DNA of 5,573 nucleotides. Source: a virus (lineage: Duplodnaviria; Heunggongvirae; Uroviricota; Caudoviricetes). The stretch is from the IMG/VR virus record IMGVR_UViG_2531839128_000025; one strand, 5' to 3'. A program made the position numbers and the translations under genes. This document shows positions 1 to 5,573 of the stretch, piece after piece; the first letter of the stretch is position 1; every line of letters starts with the position of its first letter. The notes under the pieces are model-generated. The model saw only the letters and a list, made by a program, of their open reading frames with translations, ran no database searches and was not told the DNA's origin.

Positions 1-35
1 TCAGACGTATTAACGTTTGGTAATAACGTTTCCAT
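1..35 (-). CDS. 5' end of a leftward gene of unknown function (partial; body lies beyond window start); N-terminus METLLPNVNTS
   Basis: Minus-strand ATG at 35..33 preceded by a GAGGA Shine-Dalgarno (minus-strand 5'-GTTGAGGACGCGATA-ATG, 7-nt spacer). No in-frame stop between the ATG and position 1, so the ORF runs off the window. Only 11 codons are visible, so coding status cannot be judged from composition. Confidence 0.3.
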   Translation of the reverse strand, partial: METLLPNVNTS

Positions 36-617
36 TATCGCGTCCTCAACAATGAATTTTGTGATGCGGTGCCTGGTGCCTCCAGGTGACGTTAACCAGT
101 TAACAATTAACGCCGGATACAGAGAACCCACCCATAAGAACCAATACGGAGGTCAACTAGCCTTTTTAACTGTTCCGCGTGCGCTTAGCCGCATTCACCG
201 CATCACAAAATTCACTTTAAAAAGGGCGGCAGAGCAGTCACGGAGTAAAACTGATACCGCCAAACGTCACCAGAAAATTGATAACAGAGGGCGTTGCAGC
301 GGAGTTGTCACTTAAGTGTATGGTCAACCTGACAACCCGGTGCTTCATCGGGAAGACATGAACTCCCCGCCATACTTACCGCCGCGCCATTTCGCGGAGT
401 GCCACAACCGGAAGCGCACGGTCGACGAAAATTTAACGACAGGCTATCTATGAACCAGCTACCTCGCCGTGCGCTTTCGCGTTATGGTCTGACTTTTCAG
501 GGAAATATCCTTTCAGTAAACTGTCAGTTCCGGATGCTCACCCGTGTCCGGCGCACGCACTCCACCTCACCCGTGGAGAACTCCTTAATTACCAACCTTA
601 GCTTCGTTGGTTAGCTA

Positions 618-836
618 TTAACGCGGGTATGTAATCATTCTGGCAATGCTTAATGCCGCTGCTTTTTCCAGCCTGGTGATATCCTGCTCCAGAGCGGACA
701 GATTTTCAGCCTGCTTAGCCCTGGCTTCATTGGCCCATTTCAGATCCTGCGCTGCATTAATTTTCTGGCGCATCCACTCATAAAGTTCATCATCGGTATA
801 GTCTGGCGCGATGATGACGGGTTCTCGTTTCTGCAT
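618..836 (-). CDS. small early-left-operon phage protein, 72 aa, unknown function (MQKREPVIIAPDYTDDELYEWMRQKINAAQDLKWANEARAKQAENLSALEQDITRLEKAAALSIARMITYPR)
   Basis: Minus-strand ATG at 836 preceded by a near-consensus RBS (minus 5'-CACAAGGAGTCGAC-ATG; AAGGAG with 5-nt spacer). Protein is helix-like and charged, not antisense-looking. It is the C-terminal part of the 271-codon frame 618..1433. Its position left of the repressor matches where small kil-type genes sit in Rac-like prophages (recalled, not verified). Confidence 0.5.
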   Translation of the reverse strand: MQKREPVIIAPDYTDDELYEWMRQKINAAQDLKWANEARAKQAENLSALEQDITRLEKAAALSIARMITYPR

Positions 837-1433
837 GTCGACTCCTTGTGGTTCGTGTTGCCTGCTTTTAACCACATCAGGCGAGGTGGTATCCTGAAAG
901 CCGACCAAAGCTTTACGGATAAATAAGTTATGTTGCAACCACCAATAAATCCGCTTAAAAATATGAAAATTGATTACTGGTATAAAGCACTTACAGTTGT
1001 TGGTGCTGCGTTGTTTGTCTTTAATGGAACATCTTTTTTTGACAGATACCCCGTTGTTCCACTGGCTTTTTTGTCCTCCGGTATTTTCTTCACTGGCCTT
1101 GGAGAGTGGATCAATCACCCTCTCAGAGTGAGATTTATTGGTCCCGGAGCCGTTGCCCGGGGGCATAACCGTTCTCCGTGCACACTCGGCATTATCTTCG
1201 ATATATTGGGTGTCTGCCTGATTGTTACAGGAGTCGTCAAATTCTTCTGAAGAGAATCCACACACAGGGCATACAACCGGAATACGGCAAATGATTTCAC
1301 CCGGCTCGATGTGTGGGTACTCGCCATCAATTTTTTGTTGCTCCCGTATGCCCATGTTGACCTCATTTCCCCTTAACGCCGGGGTAGCGGAACAAAAACC
1401 TGCTGCATAGTTAAAGTTGAACCCTGCCGTCAT
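618..1433 (-). CDS. alternative long gene model: 271-codon open frame (the 72-aa gene would be its C-terminus); possibly two genes or a decayed gene
   Basis: Uninterrupted minus-strand frame from the ATG at 1433 (GAGG 9 nt upstream); a second in-frame ATG at 1355 has a GAGG RBS with 5-nt spacer. The N-terminal 90 aa contain a Cys cluster (CRIPVVCPVCG...DSC...ECARR). The central ~110 aa (about 836-1180) are K/N/S/I-rich and read like the antisense of the T-rich plus-strand membrane ORF. The full-length model is therefore doubtful. Confidence 0.2.
   Translation of the reverse strand: MTAGFNFNYAAGFCSATPALRGNEVNMGIREQQKIDGEYPHIEPGEIICRIPVVCPVCGFSSEEFDDSCNNQADTQYIEDNAECARRTVMPPGNGSGTNKSHSERVIDPLSKASEENTGGQKSQWNNGVSVKKRCSIKDKQRSTNNCKCFIPVINFHIFKRIYWWLQHNLFIRKALVGFQDTTSPDVVKSRQHEPQGVDMQKREPVIIAPDYTDDELYEWMRQKINAAQDLKWANEARAKQAENLSALEQDITRLEKAAALSIARMITYPR
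963..1250 (+). CDS. small hydrophobic (membrane) protein, ~95 aa, 2-3 predicted TM segments; possible superinfection-exclusion-type accessory gene
   Basis: ORF 930..1250 in the supplied track; the ATG at 963 gives MKIDYWYKALTVVGAALFVFNG...VVPLAFLSSGIFFTGLG...LGIIFDILGVCLIVTGVVKFF with clear hydrophobic segments and T-rich third codon positions. No good Shine-Dalgarno before 930 or 963. Opposite orientation to its neighbours, as for sieB in Rac and lambda (recalled, positional only). Overlaps the long minus-strand frame. Confidence 0.35.
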   Translation: MKIDYWYKALTVVGAALFVFNGTSFFDRYPVVPLAFLSSGIFFTGLGEWINHPLRVRFIGPGAVARGHNRSPCTLGIIFDILGVCLIVTGVVKFF

Positions 1434-1537
1434 GTTCTTACGCCTCGGGCTGGCTACTTAACCCCTGACCACTGCCTGGTAACTCGAAGTATTGCCCTGC
1501 ATTCTGTGGAGCGGGGTGAGTTGGTATGAAAAGAAGG

Positions 1538-1576
1538 ATACCCATAGGTATTTAAAAAGTAAATACCCATGGGTAA
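1538..1576. promoter_or_regulatory. left operator-like site pair (OL-like): two palindromes, ATACCCATAGGTAT and ATACCCATGGGTAA, 25 bp apart
   Basis: TACCCATGGGTA at 1564-1575 is a perfect 12-bp palindrome; 1539-1550 TACCCATAGGTA has one mismatch. Lies in the 184-bp gap between the repressor stop (1618) and the leftward ORF start (1433). Same core motif (ACCYRTRGGTA) recurs twice in the repressor/cro intergenic region. Confidence 0.45.
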
Positions 1577-1617
1577 ATTTTTGCGGTGTCTTAACTGGTG
1601 ACTAGTTGTTTGGTGAG

Positions 1618-2037
1618 CTATGATGCGTTTTGTGCTTTCTTTTTACGGATTTCTTCGTAGATCATATTGTAATACTGTTTTTTCTCTTCAAGAGTTTTTA
1701 ATAAGTTATCCGCTTCACTTTCTGGCAGTTCGTCTAAGAGATCTAAAAAAATACGTTGTCGTGGCGTTAGAACCCTTGTTTCATAACTGGAGGCTGTGTT
1801 CGTTGATGATGAAACGATACCATCCATCCATCCCCGGGGTAACCCAAAGGACTCTTCGATAATCTCCACCATATCATCAGCGATCCGTTTTTTTCCCTTT
1901 TTCCCCTCTGGGTACAACATTCTTGATACATAAGAAGGCTCGCGCCCGATCTTTCTGGCCACGTTAACCGCTTTACCATCGCATTTCTCATCACGAATTT
2001 TGATGAGTTGCTGTCGTCTAAATTCATATTTGTCCAT
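1618..2037 (-). CDS. CI-type phage repressor, N-terminal helix-turn-helix, no S24 peptidase domain (RacR-like immunity repressor)
   Basis: 139-aa ORF; HTH-like segment GKAVNVARKIGREPSYVSRML followed by ...RIADDMVEIIEESFGLPRGWMD, consistent with the phage CI repressor HTH family as I recall it. Divergent from a cro-like gene with operator repeats between them. Too short and lacks an obvious Ser/Lys autocleavage region. No Shine-Dalgarno upstream of the ATG at 2037; a TATTAT -10 (minus strand, plus coordinates 2049..2044) sits 6 nt upstream of the ATG, suggesting a leaderless transcript. Confidence 0.85.
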   Translation of the reverse strand: MDKYEFRRQQLIKIRDEKCDGKAVNVARKIGREPSYVSRMLYPEGKKGKKRIADDMVEIIEESFGLPRGWMDGIVSSSTNTASSYETRVLTPRQRIFLDLLDELPESEADNLLKTLEEKKQYYNMIYEEIRKKKAQNAS

Positions 2038-2137
2038 AGGTAAATAATAGATGCGATTACTGCAAGGTAAACAACCTGTGGGTATTGACTTTTGTTTACC
2101 TGTAGGTATTCTTTGCTGTGTTTACTAAGGAGTAGCT
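2038..2137. promoter_or_regulatory. divergent promoter/operator region (OR-like) between repressor and cro-like gene
   Basis: Direct repeats AACCTGTGGGTATT (2073-2086) and TACCTGTAGGTATT (2097-2110), 24 bp apart. Inverted repeat GGTAAACAA (2066-2074) / TTGTTTACC (2092-2100). Rightward promoter candidate: -35 TTGACT (2085-2090), 16-bp spacer, -10 TATTCT (2107-2112), then RBS AAGGAG (2128-2133) and ATG at 2138. Leftward promoter candidate: -10 TATTAT with -35 TTTACC on the minus strand. Operator repeats overlap both promoters. Confidence 0.5.
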
Positions 2138-2419
2138 ATGGAAGAATTAAGAATATTTCTCAATTCTCTTTCGTCAGATGAACAGCGTATGTTTGCATGC
2201 GAGTGTGGTACCAGCATCGGTTATCTAAGAAAGGCATTGAGTAAAGGTCAAGTGTTAGGGGCATCGTTATGTGTCCTTATTGAGCGAGCCAGTAATGGTG
2301 AAGTTACACGTCAGCAACTAAGGCCTTTTGATTGGATGAATATTTGGCCCGAGCTGGAAGATACCAAAACGTTAACACAACCACTTTCTAGGAGCTTGAT
2401 TCATGAAAATCAAGCATGA
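2138..2419 (+). CDS. Cro-like HTH transcriptional regulator, YdaS family (Cro/CI-type; putative antitoxin-like partner of YdaT)
   Basis: 93-aa ORF with strong RBS (AAGGAG, 5-nt spacer). HTH-like TSIGYLRKALSKGQ and the C..IERA.NGEV....LRP.DW pattern I associate with YdaS-type Cro proteins. First gene of the rightward operon opposite the repressor. Confidence 0.8.
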   Translation: MEELRIFLNSLSSDEQRMFACECGTSIGYLRKALSKGQVLGASLCVLIERASNGEVTRQQLRPFDWMNIWPELEDTKTLTQPLSRSLIHENQA

Positions 2420-2899: not shown

Positions 2900-3970
2900 A
2901 TGGCTAACGCTTGGCTCAGATTATGGCATGACATGCCAAATGACCCTAAGTGGCGAACAATTGCCAGGGTGTCAGGGCAGCCAATTGCAACAGTGATGGC
3001 AGTGTATATCCACCTCCTGGTGAGCGCGTCACGAAATGTCACGCGAGGTCACATTGATGTCACGACAGAAGATTTAGCAAGTGCGCTCGACGTGACAGAA
3101 GAGGTAATTGATTCAATTTTGCAGACGATGCAGGGGCGGGTACTTGATGGTGATTTAATCACTGGATGGGAAAAACGCCAGGTGCTTAAAGAGGACAACG
3201 GCAATATTTCGCAAACCGCAAAATCTCCGGCAGAGCGCAAGAGGGCGCAGCGAGAGAGGGAAAGAAAGCGGGAACAAAATGGCGATTGTCACGGCGCGTC
3301 ACGAAATGTCACGCACATGTCACGACGAGTCACGACAGATAAAGATACAGATAAAGATACAGATCAAGAAGATCAAAACACTATGGTCCATGGCGTAAAA
3401 AACGCCACGAACCAGGCAGGGGATGTTCAGACCGTCAATCCTGGTCAGCCAGCAGGCACGACACCGGAAGCCGATTCAGCGTATGCGCTGAAAGCCGATT
3501 CGGGCGCTGTGCAGCAGGTGATGACCCCAAGGCCGGAGCAATCACACCAACTGCAGCAGCCTGAAGCCGATTCCGCCATTCAGCGGGAAGCCGATCGGGT
3601 AGTCCCGGAAAACACCGGGCTGTCTGTGGGACGAGTGGATTATCCGGATGTATTCGAACAGGTCTGGCGGGAGTACCCGTTGCGTGCCGGAGCAAACCCG
3701 AAGAAATCCGCTTTCAGTGCCTGGAAGGCCAGATTACGCGAGGGGGTGCCACCAGAGGCCATGCTGGATGGCGTGAGGCGTTACGCAAGATACTTGGCGG
3801 CTACCGGGAAAACGGGAACGGAATTTGTTCAGCGAGCGACGACGTTTTTTGGACCGGACCGGAATTTTGAGAACCCCTGGTTGCTCCCGGTAAGCGGCAC
3901 GAACAACCAGCGTTGTGTGAATCATATTTCTGAACCGGATAACGAAATTCCGCCGGGCTTCAGGGGGTAA
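2900..3970 (+). CDS. phage replication initiation protein (replisome-organizer / lambda O-like initiator) carrying its own origin iterons
   Basis: ORF 2894..3970 in the track; the likely start is ATG at 2900 (GAGG at 2891-2894, 5-nt spacer), with GTG at 2894 as alternative. N-terminus ANAWLRLWHDMPNDPKWRTIARVSGQPIATVMAVYIHLL resembles phage replisome-organizer N-domains. C-terminus FEQVWREYPLRAGANPKKSAFSAWKARLREGVPPEAMLDGVRRYARYLAATGKTGTEFVQRATTFFGPDRNFENPW resembles the conserved C-terminal motif of phage DnaD/O-like initiators (recalled). Internal phased repeats plus an acidic DKDTDKDTDQEDQ linker mirror lambda ori-within-O architecture. Confidence 0.85.
   Translation: MANAWLRLWHDMPNDPKWRTIARVSGQPIATVMAVYIHLLVSASRNVTRGHIDVTTEDLASALDVTEEVIDSILQTMQGRVLDGDLITGWEKRQVLKEDNGNISQTAKSPAERKRAQRERERKREQNGDCHGASRNVTHMSRRVTTDKDTDKDTDQEDQNTMVHGVKNATNQAGDVQTVNPGQPAGTTPEADSAYALKADSGAVQQVMTPRPEQSHQLQQPEADSAIQREADRVVPENTGLSVGRVDYPDVFEQVWREYPLRAGANPKKSAFSAWKARLREGVPPEAMLDGVRRYARYLAATGKTGTEFVQRATTFFGPDRNFENPWLLPVSGTNNQRCVNHISEPDNEIPPGFRG
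3024..3064 (+). repeat. iteron-like cluster A: four GTCAC(G/A) hexamers phased at 10-11 bp inside the replication gene N-domain coding region
   Basis: GTCACG at 3028, 3038, 3059 and GTCACA at 3048; inverted copy CGTGAC at 3091-3096. The 21-mer GCGCGTCACGAAATGTCACGC (3024-3044) is repeated exactly at 3294-3314. Confidence 0.5.
3284..3380 (+). repeat. iteron cluster B plus AT-rich tandem repeat: putative replication origin within the initiator gene
   Basis: Five GTCACG hexamers at 3288, 3298, 3308, 3319, 3329 (helical-turn phasing), immediately followed by tandem 12-mers AGATAAAGATAC x2 (3337-3360) and a degenerate AGATCAAGAAGATCAAAAC. The iterons-then-AT-rich layout in the linker between N- and C-domains parallels lambda ori in gene O. 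Confidence 0.55.
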
Positions 3971-4010
3971 GTGTTAATTTCTGGTCATGAGGTAATTTTC
4001 AGGAGGACTT

Positions 4011-4436
4011 GTGGCAAAAGTTTTTACACAAGAAGAGCGGGAAAAAATTAAAGGGCAGGTTGTTGAACTCGTACGCCAGAGTGGGCGCGAGACGTTACGA
4101 CAACTGGAAACTAAAACTGGGGCAACAAGATATCTGATGAGTGTTCTGGCCAGAGAGCTGGTTGCCAGTGGCGATGTATACAACTCTGGTTACGGGTTAT
4201 TCCCGTCTGAACAGGCGCGTAAGGACTGGCAAAATGCCCGTATAAAGCTCTCAAGGGCAAAGCTGAAGAAACCATCTGCGGTTGATCCGGACCTTATCTG
4301 GTCATTACCTGACGGAGAAATACGTCGCTACGATAGTTGTCTAAACATAATCTGTCGCGAGTGCCGGAAGAGCGAAGTTATGCAGCGCATTCTGGCATTT
4401 TATCAGGGAAATGTTAGGTATTTTAGACGTTACTAG
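4011..4436 (+). CDS. hypothetical phage protein, 141 aa, N-terminal winged-helix-like segment; GTG start
   Basis: Strong RBS AGGAGG (4001-4006) 4 nt upstream of GTG at 4011. N-terminal VVELVRQSGRETLRQLETKTGATRYLMSVLARELVASGDVY looks like a wHTH. C-terminal half has a small Cys cluster (CLNIICRECRK). Family not identified; sits where a helicase loader would be in Rac. Confidence 0.7.
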   Translation: MAKVFTQEEREKIKGQVVELVRQSGRETLRQLETKTGATRYLMSVLARELVASGDVYNSGYGLFPSEQARKDWQNARIKLSRAKLKKPSAVDPDLIWSLPDGEIRRYDSCLNIICRECRKSEVMQRILAFYQGNVRYFRRY

Positions 4437-4663: not shown

Positions 4664-5573
4664 ATGGATACTTTTCATAATATTTTGCTTGAGCACATAG
4701 ACAGCCTTTTAAAAGAGAGACTTGATTTATCTGGTGACGCTGATATCGAAAAAGAAATTAATAACCTAATTCCCAAAATAGCCATTGTCGTTAAAAAATC
4801 TCTTATTGGCTCGGCCAATGCAATGCTTAGAGAACATCGTTCTCTTTGTGATGAATTTGTTGAGAGAAATATTTCAAGATGGGCAGAGGCTTTTGATTTG
4901 CTCGAAACACTTATAGTGATATGCACGGAGTCCGGTGAAGAGTTCAATCGTTCTTATAGACCACAAGCTGCCTCTGAAGAGGATGTGGTTTTTGATTTAG
5001 TCGTTCGGCATCACGCAAGAGCTTGCCACATCGCCAACGAAATTTTGTGTCTCTTAAAGAATGGATTTGCAGATGCTGCCCAAGCGAGATGGCGAGCACT
5101 TCATGAGGTAGCGGCCACAGCTATGTTTATAGCAAAGCATGGAAAAGAGTGTGCTGAGCGCTTTTACTACCATGAAGTGGTTGATTCATATACTGGAATG
5201 TTGGAACACAAAAAGTACGAGCACCGGTTAGAAGCAAAAGGTCCAACTATTGAAGAAATAGCTGAGTGTAAAGTTCAATTTGATCTATTAATAAAAAAAT
5301 ATGGCAAAAAATATGCAGATAATTATGGCTGGGCATCTTATATTTTCCCTAACCATAATAAAGTGGGGTTTGGAGCTATTGAGAAAGATGTTCAGTTAGA
5401 ACACATGCGCCCTTATTATAAGTGGGCGAGTCAGAATGTACACACCGGTTCCAAGGCAATGAGAAATAGGCTTGGTCTCTGTGAAACTGGTGATGATATA
5501 TTATTGGTCGGGCAAAGTGATTCAGGAATGGCTGATCCAGCCCATGCTACTGCTATTAGTTTGATGCAGATTA
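4664..5573 (+). CDS. AT-rich cargo ORF of unknown function, partial (303+ codons, 3' end beyond window); candidate accessory/defence gene with HEPN-like R-x4-H motif
   Basis: ATG at 4664 opens a frame with no stop to the window end (protein starts MDTFHNILLEHIDSLLKERLDLSGDADIEKEINNLIPK...). It is absent from the supplied track only because it runs off the window. Strong A/T bias in codons, unlike the replication genes upstream. Weak SD (GAGA). Contains RWRALH (R-x4-H). No family confidently recognised. Confidence 0.75.
   Translation, partial: MDTFHNILLEHIDSLLKERLDLSGDADIEKEINNLIPKIAIVVKKSLIGSANAMLREHRSLCDEFVERNISRWAEAFDLLETLIVICTESGEEFNRSYRPQAASEEDVVFDLVVRHHARACHIANEILCLLKNGFADAAQARWRALHEVAATAMFIAKHGKECAERFYYHEVVDSYTGMLEHKKYEHRLEAKGPTIEEIAECKVQFDLLIKKYGKKYADNYGWASYIFPNHNKVGFGAIEKDVQLEHMRPYYKWASQNVHTGSKAMRNRLGLCETGDDILLVGQSDSGMADPAHATAISLMQI

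Follow-up and report, generated by a model that had tools for sequence, protein, structure and literature searches.

Can a long minus-strand reading frame that stays open across the complement of a small membrane-protein gene be a gene in its own right, or does it reflect chance, decay or a sequencing error? The question was raised by a sequence-only reading of the window, a 5,573-nt stretch of DNA from a virus of the Caudoviricetes (IMG/VR record IMGVR_UViG_2531839128_000025), in which a 271-codon minus-strand frame (618-1433) was found to run antisense to a hydrophobic plus-strand ORF. Follow-up analysis confirmed this observation. The window was found to be the immunity/early-left region of a Qin/DicB-type lambdoid prophage, and the features to which we refer are the following (relatives are designated by L or P and a number).

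930..1250, plus strand: gene for a 106-aa membrane protein (three helices predicted) of an unnamed conserved family, pointing against the early-left operon.
618..1355, minus strand: ORF of 245 codons starting from a ydfA-type Shine-Dalgarno (SD) site and ATG, the likely first cistron of the repressor-controlled early-left (dicBF-type) operon, which in this lineage runs in frame into ydfC.
1251..1355, minus strand: N-terminal segment of the minus ORF outside the overlap, with the conserved motif ...PGE....IP..CP.CGF.S, a zinc-knuckle-like CPxCG.
930..1250, minus strand: part of the minus ORF that reads antisense, codon for codon, through the membrane gene.
837..929, minus strand: 31 stop-free codons joining the antisense part to ydfC; on the plus strand, the 5' region of the membrane gene.
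618..836, minus strand: ydfC, 72 aa, with its own SD (AAGGAG, 847-842).
1356..1433, minus strand: in-frame upstream extension (MTAGFNFNYAAGF...) of the 271-codon ORF, probably 5' leader rather than coding sequence.
1534..1575, minus strand: candidate early-left promoter (TTTACT, 17-nt spacer, TATCCT) flanked by two operator-like palindromes.
1618..2037, minus strand: DicA-like repressor gene upstream of the minus ORF.
896..1365, no strand assigned: exchangeable cassette.

The plus-strand ORF is a real gene. The sequence-only reading had placed its start at 963, but this is an internal ATG, and the family alignment places the start at 930 because N7 and L9 are nearly invariant. Fifty-six homologues down to 34% identity share invariant DYWYKA and GLGEWINHP motifs, and the family comprises 461 clusters at E<=1e-3. 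The gene shows a dN/dS of 0.07-0.20, with values of 0.04-0.20 in every subclade, and AlphaFold gives a confident model (pLDDT 86) with helices at residues 17-32, 42-62 and 85-105; the possibility that the plus ORF is an artefact was therefore rejected. No function could be assigned by homology or fold, as searches of Pfam, NCBIfam and PHROGs returned no match for this protein and searches of BFVD and PDB gave no significant structural match. A promoter scan found no consensus promoter upstream of 930.

The two frames are codon-aligned: plus codons start at positions divisible by 3, and minus codons occupy the same triplets. Only plus-strand TTA, CTA or TCA codons can therefore stop the minus frame, and the gene, with 11 Leu and 4 Ser codons, has none of these three. 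Using the codon usage of the neighbouring genes in the window, 4.6 stops are expected and the probability of finding none is about 0.004. The open run is thus unlikely by chance, as the sequence-only reading had held, though less so than a naive estimate based on 200 codons implies.

The same reading proposed three explanations, namely a decayed longer gene, genuine antisense-overlapping small genes or a sequencing frameshift, and its interpretation was partly supported. It was right that the last 72 codons are a separate gene with its own ribosome-binding site: the SD and the ATG at 836 are the start of ydfC, the 72-aa product of which is identical to the YdfC annotated in L001 (WP_001171946.1), is predicted as a long helix (pLDDT 70-85), and is encoded upstream of DicF RNA (224-275, 76.7 bits) and the 5' end of dicB. 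It was also right that both strands look coding near 1180-1270, but the claim that the real leftward gene is only these 72 codons was not supported, because the 20 codons at 1251-1310 show a coding pattern of substitution on the minus strand. A sequencing frameshift was rejected, as two independent IMG/VR contigs (L046 and L047) give an identical translation of the whole 279-codon open frame and the architecture is conserved. A decayed longer gene was likewise rejected, as the frame is kept open in about 16 diverged lineages. Genuine antisense overlap is the supported alternative, in altered form: these are not two small genes touching at their ends, but a 106-codon gene lying wholly inside a frame of roughly 150-245 codons that is inferred to be translated. 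Stops in one frame among homologues with a conserved protein in the other had been named in advance as the result that would overturn the overlap, and this comparison gave a split outcome. Distant non-prophage homologues do carry stops in the minus frame, which shows that the plus gene is real, while prophage homologues, apart from the variants described below, have stops in neither frame.

Comparison across the family showed that one monophyletic clade, formed by the prophage genes with an open antisense frame and including about 16 lineages saturated at synonymous sites, almost entirely lacks the stop-generating codons. No antisense stop was found in 34 of 35 unique IMG/VR genes (the best 80 of roughly 200 IMG/VR relatives were retrieved) or in any E. 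coli or Yersinia lineage except the L051/L052 allele, which has one. Among 25 representatives, 24 have no stop, whereas 3-8 are expected for most from flanking-gene codon usage; the probability of finding none is 0.001-0.05 for most of about 16 near-independent lineages. Sixteen representatives differ at 50% or more of shared fourfold sites, and are so close to independent. Context-matched controls within the same genes gave CTA 0/243 versus GTA 12/180, TCA 1/65 versus NCA 105/450 and TTA 3/57 versus NAA 116/186, although the Fisher p-values treat related sequences as independent. No such depletion was found in 12 non-prophage homologues, which carry 3-17 stops each. Composition or dinucleotide bias as the cause of the missing codons was rejected by these controls and by the non-prophage homologues.

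The minus ORF also has the properties of an early-operon cistron. Its ATG at 1355 is preceded by GAGG 6 nt upstream, and the leader before it also precedes ydfA (in L004) and the ECs_2282 cassette (in L001), but varies, including indels, upstream of the SD region. Homology to L004 ends around 1352, so that only the leader, SD and ATG are shared with ydfA; Pfam finds no family, and hence no DUF1391 domain, in the 271-aa ORF, which therefore does not qualify as YdfA. The ORF matches phrog_35040, of unknown function. In relatives, SD and start codons are present, the ORF is 149-166 aa long, and gaps of 1-36 nt to cro upstream and 4-29 nt to cII downstream indicate tight packing. The 245/271-aa fusion to ydfC also occurs in P0061-P0063 and L046-L048, but other lineages have a stop 16-36 nt beyond the sense ATG (for example, HNLFIRKA* in L126/L129); the fusion is specific to the lineage of the window and could be due to chance, with an estimated (not computed) probability of about 0.2 for 31 codons.

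The 20-40 codons of the minus ORF outside the overlap are under purifying selection (dN/dS 0.14-0.48). In the 20 codons next to the overlap, 18 third positions vary against 11 first and 9 second positions, I-P-x-x-C-P-[IV]-C-G-F is invariant despite synonymous changes, and the pN/pS of 0.48 is the lowest of the six frames. A plus-strand +1 frame (1222-1410) was judged unlikely to be the source of this conservation, because its translations, as read by eye, are poorly conserved, its pN/pS is 0.59 and the Yersinia sequence, read by hand, has a stop in that frame. A related motif occurs at the same position in Roseateles and IMG/VR phages. One CP.CG knuckle is invariant in lineages A-E, in Roseateles and in several IMG/VR phages, but a second Cys pair is not conserved and many relatives carry PGSV.ID.....VTL.GW at this position, with no Cys, so that these data do not settle whether the segment is a zinc ribbon or zinc knuckle. 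Two profile searches for an independent family carrying the CP.CGF domain found only proteins that also contain the antisense part. Inside the overlap, by contrast, the amino-acid sequence of the minus frame is unconstrained: antisense dN/dS is 1.1-1.6 (0.8-1.6 over all comparisons), synonymous-codon identity is only 1.06 times expectation, and this part has pLDDT below 50.

Taken together, these data suggest, tentatively, that two real coding units share 930-1250. On the plus strand, the membrane gene sits in reverse orientation inside the early-left operon, in the same position and orientation as sieB in prophage Rac, and is therefore most likely a lysogen-expressed accessory gene, perhaps for exclusion or defence. 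On the minus strand, the promoter-proximal cistron would encode a short N-terminal domain under selection and then read antisense through the whole membrane gene. In this view, selection removes any TTA, CTA or TCA codon from the membrane gene so that the minus frame never closes, without constraining what the overlapping part encodes. The most likely reason would be that ribosomes must keep translating the early transcript while it runs antisense through the embedded gene, preventing Rho-type termination or polarity and passing ribosomes on to the next cistron, which here is ydfC and in the cro-cII phages examined is mostly cII. The analysis itself demonstrates the conservation of both frames, the avoidance of stop-generating codons, selection on the N-terminus and the operon packing; that the minus frame is translated, that its purpose is anti-polarity, and that the plus gene is expressed in lysogens and has the function proposed are inferences, as no transcription, translation or proteomic data were examined for either strand. 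The criteria of shared nucleotides and of selection maintaining each frame are thus satisfied for an antisense overlapping gene pair, while that of a constrained second amino-acid sequence is not.

Several findings weigh against this model. Some natural variants break the minus frame: L005 has GGA to TGA just after CPVC, L051/L052 have one internal stop, a 1-nt deletion in L007 removes the start and L170 has stops near the 3' end. A general rule that every reverse-oriented gene in these operons is covered by an ORF is supported by the ECs_2282 cassette, which has the same embedded layout, but contradicted by Rac sieB, which sits in the same kind of operon and orientation yet has 7 antisense stops. 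The K-12 dicBF operon tolerates a long untranslated stretch around dicF (PMC5069750), which weakens the polarity argument for this operon type. Moreover, a conserved N-terminal domain is not needed for a pure ribosome track.

A less likely alternative is that both proteins are functional end to end. The minus-strand product would then be a protein of roughly 150 aa in which the N-terminal domain and a C-terminal motif, FIPV(I/V)..H..RI, are both needed and are joined by a freely evolving disordered linker; the motif would be fixed for free as the antisense of the invariant NPL..L.IDYWYKA, and stops would be avoided because truncation removes the C-terminus. Selection on the N-terminal domain, the conserved length of 149-166 aa with an end just past the sense start, and the retention of P127, VPV and H motifs near the C-terminus in the antisense alignment are consistent with this reading, and in phage Fc02 both antisense-overlapping genes gave an exclusion phenotype and detectable protein (PMC9936078). 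However, there is no detectable constraint on the overlapping part beyond that imposed by the sense gene, pLDDT is below 50 for residues 1-186, truncated natural variants exist (L005, L051, L170), and in the window the C-terminus is not free but fused to YdfC.

It is very unlikely, though not excluded, that the overlapping part is a built-in antisense peptide of the membrane protein. Being encoded codon for codon by the complementary strand, it is hydropathically complementary to that protein (per-codon Kyte-Doolittle r = -0.71) and changes automatically whenever the membrane protein changes. During lytic growth it could bind and neutralise the lysogen-expressed membrane protein, which would explain why the frame must stay open across exactly the whole embedded gene, why it ends just beyond it and why its sequence needs no independent constraint.

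Equally improbable, and strongly disfavoured, is that only the plus gene and ydfC are real and that the minus frame is a shadow ORF caused by codon alignment, amino-acid composition and codon bias. The codon-aligned antisense frame is the one most easily left open, antisense dN/dS is 1 or more, a few high-GC non-prophage homologues (L019, L036) also lack antisense stops, and RefSeq annotates neither ORF in B-type prophages. On the other hand, the depletion is specific to the three stop-generating codons, being absent from GTA, ATA, NCA and NAA codons of the same genes and from non-prophage homologues, and coding-type conservation, SD sites and start codons lie outside the overlap. Least likely is a non-functional remnant, assembly frameshift or accidental ydfA-ydfC fusion, since, although 896-1365 is a recombinational cassette, the frame is fused to ydfC here and to the first 34 codons of ydfB in B-type prophages, and many database entries are frameshifted versions, independent contigs give the same open frame, the ORF stands alone with its own start in lineages D and E, mEp390, Roseateles and many IMG/VR phages, and a decaying gene would accumulate the stops that are excluded here.

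Among known systems, the regulatory module of Pseudomonas phage Fc02 (olg1/olg2 versus gene 10; Ramirez-Sanchez et al. 2023, PMC9936078) is one of the closest. In Fc02, a gene on the repressor-side strand, transcribed in the lysogen, is fully overlapped in antisense by the cistron that follows the cro/ner-like gene in the early lytic operon, and the order repressor, cro/ner, overlapped pair is also found in mEp390, L167 and L138. No homology was detected, however, as tblastn of the membrane protein against 50,697 phage records hit only HannyBb, mEp390 and Bcep176; the minus-strand ORF was not searched against Fc02. In addition, the insoluble protein in Fc02 is the lytic-strand gene 10, and Fc02 has experimental support but no comparative evidence for stop avoidance, the reverse of the situation here. 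Superinfection exclusion gene sieB is a small membrane-protein gene in reverse orientation inside the early-left operon of Rac and lambda, and in Rac it lies just after the ydaG-ydaF (YdfA-like) cistrons, the position of the plus gene. The plus-strand protein did not qualify as SieB-type, as only position and orientation match and no sequence similarity was detected; an exclusion phenotype was not assayed. Rac sieB, furthermore, has its 7 stops in the codon-aligned antisense frame and is not embedded in an ORF.

Antisense overlapping genes have also been reported in E. coli O157:H7 and Pseudomonas (pop/ompA, asa, laoB, ano, nog1; PMC7103648, PMC6294744, PMC5810103, PMC5960689, PMC8850804), where a long ORF is antisense to, and shares codons with, an established gene, and the overlapping frame shows little sequence constraint, as expected if it arose by overprinting (a new reading frame evolving over an existing gene). 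In those cases, the new ORF is embedded in a longer annotated gene and support comes mainly from Ribo-seq and RNA-seq. Here the established gene is the embedded one, the ORF is an ordinary packed operon cistron, and the evidence is deep comparative, with the frame preserved across beta- and gamma-proteobacterial prophages. Compared with the dicBF operon of prophage Qin, ydfA-ydfB-ydfC-dicF-dicB (PMC5069750), the window keeps the ydfA leader, SD and ATG as well as ydfC, DicF and the 5' end of dicB, but the ydfA and ydfB coding sequences are replaced by the overlapping cassette.

Whether long antisense-overlapping ORFs in bacteria and phages are functional is disputed, and most cases rest on Ribo-seq signal in a single strain. 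This locus provides a comparative test with a clear result, and separates selection to keep a frame open from selection on the encoded sequence, which makes the question of whether translation itself is the function directly testable. In practice, databases annotate one ORF, the other or neither: mEp390 gp39 and phrog_35040 are the antisense ORF, Bcep176 gp33 is the membrane gene, and RefSeq skips both in about 790 E. coli genomes (B-type prophages are present in about 790 of 5,426 complete genomes). A family of about 460 clusters of membrane proteins is therefore still unnamed.

With regard to the surrounding sequence, BLAST breakpoints against L001 and L002 define the cassette at 896-1365. 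Most E. coli relatives carry a different insert at this site, the ECs_2282 zinc-binding gene, also on the plus strand; the cassette of the window replaces it, and NCBIfam gave no hit to that family. The window is covered to 91% in 65 genomes, which leaves room for this stretch being the part not covered. The palindromic motif TACC[CT][AG]T[AG]GGTA occurs at 1539, 1564 and 2097, with a variant at 2073, and the stretch containing the candidate promoter, an assignment that rests on our own reading of the sequence, was also flagged as a hairpin. The repressor gene gave a weak NCBIfam match to DicA and is annotated as hypothetical or HTH protein in homologous prophages. Finally, a CCECG motif in Pantoea lies inside the overlap and is not homologous to CP.CGF.

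The stretch represents the immunity and early region of a Qin/DicB-type lambdoid prophage of Escherichia, and the following features were identified in it:

1-35, minus strand, the first codons of dicB (by translation and by alignment to locus L003, a B-type prophage), which form the 5' end of that gene
58-212, minus strand, a sub-threshold STnc100-like match between dicF and dicB (35.3 bits against a gathering score of 47)
224-275, minus strand, DicF sRNA (Rfam, 76.7 bits, above the gathering score)
618-836, minus strand, ydfC
1618-2037, minus strand, a DicA-like repressor gene
Plus strand, a Cro/YdaS-like gene, a YdaT-like gene, an O-like replication gene, a DUF977 gene and a DUF5677 gene (the last at 4664-5573, Pfam E = 5.6e-34)
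1539-1575 and 2073-2108, four copies of the palindrome-like motif (T/A)ACC[CT][AG]T[AG]GGTA, with starts at 1539, 1564, 2073 and 2097
3028-3064 and 3288-3334, plus strand, GTCACG repeats inside the O-like gene, three copies and then five, at roughly 10-11 bp spacing
About 3339-3362, a GATAAAGATACA tandem repeat

The palindrome-like motifs flank the repressor and cro genes and are candidate operators overlapping -35/-10-like hexamers, although the promoter assignments rest on inspection of the sequence; the left pair also forms a 16-bp hairpin followed by a T-run, which was flagged as terminator-like in a scan. The GTCACG repeats are likely origin iterons. In K-12, the corresponding operon is ydfA-ydfB-ydfC-dicF-dicB, which is repressed by DicA (PMC5069750). 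Window 896-1365 is an exchangeable cassette. Sixty-five complete E. coli genomes matched at least 80% of the window, with the best-matching ones covering 91% of it, while two E. coli relatives (L001 and L002) carry a different insert at this site, the plus-strand gene for the zinc-binding protein ECs_2282.

The observation made in the sequence-only reading held, as both ORFs lie where it placed them, except that the plus-strand gene starts at 930 rather than at 963. The two frames use the same triplets on opposite strands and the minus frame can therefore be closed only by TTA, CTA or TCA codons in the plus gene. The plus gene contains none of these codons, although 4.6 are expected from the codon usage of the neighboring genes (P about 0.004). 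Two further contigs, L046 and L047, give the same open frame.

A protein is encoded by the plus strand. A word-indexed search identified 56 homologues, down to 34% identity, which have the same length and invariant D15, W17-A20, G56, G58-W60 and N62-P64, and an exhaustive profile search found 461 clusters at E<=1e-3. Nei-Gojobori estimates of dN/dS, which are approximate and for which many synonymous distances are saturated, were 0.07-0.20 among E. coli and Yersinia lineages and 0.04-0.20 in other subclades. AlphaFold predicted three helices and a hairpin with a pLDDT of 86. No Pfam, NCBIfam or PHROG family and no significant structural neighbor was found for this protein. Stops in one frame of homologues, with a conserved protein in the other, had been named beforehand as the outcome that would resolve the region into ordinary non-overlapping genes, and the result of this test was split; homologues in Herminiimonas, Reinekea, Pseudomonas guineae, Arcobacter and others carry 3-17 stops in the antisense frame, which alone settles that the plus strand encodes a protein. 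In Herminiimonas aquatilis, a distant homologue of the membrane protein (L012, 3001-3309) is located immediately upstream of a DUF5677 gene (3397-4179), and as the window itself ends in a DUF5677 gene, the two families may be functionally linked.

By comparison, the minus frame is kept open by selection. In the enterobacterial prophage lineages the antisense frame has no stop, apart from the natural variants described below. These lineages are A (the window), B (about 790 E. coli genomes), C (Escherichia sp.), D (a metagenomic group) and E (Yersinia), and sense identity among them falls as low as 54%. A second scan of IMG/VR, seeded with the Roseateles-type protein, gave 35 further unique genes with GC 0.42-0.62, of which 34 have no antisense stop; only the best 80 loci of each scan were examined. 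Across 25 representatives, flanking-gene codon usage predicts 3-8 stops for most, but 24 have none and one (L170) has four, clustered at the 3' end. Comparison of stop-generating codons with matched control codons inside the same genes was decisive:

Stop-generating codons and matched control codons in plus-strand genes of the prophage clade
CTA, 0/243; GTA, 12/180
TCA, 1/65; GCA+CCA+ACA, 105/450
TTA, 3/57; A-ending Lys/Glu/Gln codons, 116/186

The 12 non-prophage homologues showed no such depletion in any of the three comparisons. The Fisher tests applied here ignore phylogeny. Sixteen representatives differ from one another at 50% or more of shared fourfold sites and are therefore close to independent trials. 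In a neighbor-joining tree, built without support values, the genes with an open antisense frame form one clade. Two homologues outside the main prophage clade also have no antisense stops, one in a Nitrosomonadales metagenome-assembled genome (L023, GC 0.46) and one on an IMG/VR contig (L172, GC 0.62). These could represent a second origin or chance; L023 has a 133-codon antisense ORF (1474-1875, minus strand) without the N-terminal motifs.

Further analysis showed that the minus-strand ORF resembles a cistron. In every lineage an SD and start codon are found 20-50 codons beyond the sense stop, and ORF lengths are 149-166 aa. In phage mEp390 and in loci L167, L151 and L145, the order is LexA-type repressor (plus), Cro (minus), this ORF (minus) and CII of the CP76 type (minus), with gaps of 1-36 nt upstream and 4-29 nt downstream. 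In the window and in lineages C, D and E, it is the first ORF after the repressor gene and a candidate operator/promoter region; in the window and lineage C, it uses the same leader, SD and ATG that precede ydfA elsewhere, and in lineage B it is fused in frame to the first 34 codons of ydfB. Moreover, the codons outside the overlap evolve like coding sequence. At window 1251-1310, 18 of 20 third positions vary, against 11 first and 9 second positions, and I-P-x-x-C-P-[IV]-C-G-F stays invariant through ATT/ATC/ATA, all four CCN codons, TGT/TGC, GGA/GGT and TTC/TTT. Other subclades gave dN/dS of 0.14-0.48 for this part. The N-terminal motif is found in two forms, ...PG......P....CP.CG.. and F.E.L....PGSV.ID.....VTL.GW.L, with locus L152 carrying elements of both. 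In a Desulfocapsaceae metagenome-assembled genome (L039), a separate convergent 84-aa ORF with a CPSCG motif (1897-2151, minus strand) ends about 20 codons before the membrane-gene homologue, which might resemble an ancestral, non-overlapping arrangement or may be coincidence.

The overlapping part of the minus frame has no sequence constraint of its own. Antisense-frame dN/dS was 0.8-1.6, and at conserved sense residues codon identity among divergent pairs was only 1.06 times expectation, against 0.96 in the non-prophage set. Within lineage B, many alleles share one membrane-protein sequence but differ in the antisense protein. AlphaFold gave pLDDT below 50 for residues 1-186 of the 245-aa product, in which only the YdfC part is predicted to fold.

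Some natural variants break the minus frame: L005 has a TGA directly after CPVC, L051 and L052 have one internal stop caused by an Ala-to-Ser change in the sense protein, L007 has a 1-nt deletion in an A-run that removes the start, and L170 is truncated. Rac sieB, a reverse-oriented membrane gene at the equivalent place after ydaG and ydaF, has seven antisense stops, which shows what an unselected antisense frame looks like and also that covering of a reverse gene is not universal. The unrelated ECs_2282 cassette, which most E. coli carry at this very site, is likewise embedded, codon-aligned, in a 118-codon minus-strand ORF with SD and GTG (in L001, 2909-3265 on the minus strand over 2930-3130 on the plus strand; also in loci L214-L293). 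This holds in all 19 alleles seen, none of which has an antisense stop, and the sense protein is nearly invariant while the antisense protein varies, but these alleles are 92-100% identical and the evidence is therefore weak.

Taken together, the facts call for translation of the minus strand across the whole embedded gene, plus a functional N-terminal segment. The interpretation in the sequence-only reading, which listed genuine antisense-overlapping small genes next to a decayed longer gene and a sequencing frameshift, was supported in part. While conservation of the plus gene, avoidance of stop-generating codons, selection on the N-terminal codons and cistron-like packing are shown by the sequence comparisons, translation of the minus frame, the reason for keeping it open and expression of the plus gene in lysogens are inferred, as no expression data were available. 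The view tentatively favored is that the open frame serves translation itself. Rho suppresses untranslated and antisense transcription, and an early transcript that runs antisense through a gene would be expected to be a target for Rho; uninterrupted translation would protect the transcript and hand ribosomes on to the next tightly spaced cistron. The main rival, considered less likely, is that the full-length protein is needed, in which case its C-terminal motif would come for free as the antisense of the invariant NPL..IDYWYKA. The position and orientation of the plus gene suggest a lysogen-expressed accessory protein, possibly for exclusion or defense; in the Cro-CII phages, it points towards the repressor gene from the place where lambda has PRE. 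The closest published parallel is Pseudomonas phage Fc02, in which forward-strand olg1/olg2 are co-transcribed with the repressor in lysogens and fully overlap reverse-strand gene 10, which follows ner, and in which both olg1 and gene 10 give exclusion (PMC9936078). No homology to that module was detected in a tblastn search with the membrane protein; the minus-strand ORF was not searched against Fc02.

In lineage A, the usual stop 16-36 nt beyond the sense ATG is missing and the frame runs 31 more codons into ydfC in frame. This could yield a 245-aa fusion protein or simply tight coupling, and it may be chance; the same arrangement was found in sequences P0061-P0063 and L048, including with a different ydfC allele. 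The ATG at 1433 is probably not the start, as its SD spacing is poor and the stretch is a shared, variable leader.

Public annotation of the locus is inconsistent (L003/L004, 1533-2150; L211, 1756-2211; L213, 1669-2133; L212, 1783-2400). RefSeq (PGAP) annotates neither ORF in B-type prophages and calls the ydfB fusion a pseudogene. While mEp390 gp39 and HannyBb CDS0038 are the antisense ORF, Bcep176 gp33 is the membrane gene, and the note for mEp390 gp39 cites similarity to Bcep176 gp33, which is encoded on the other strand.
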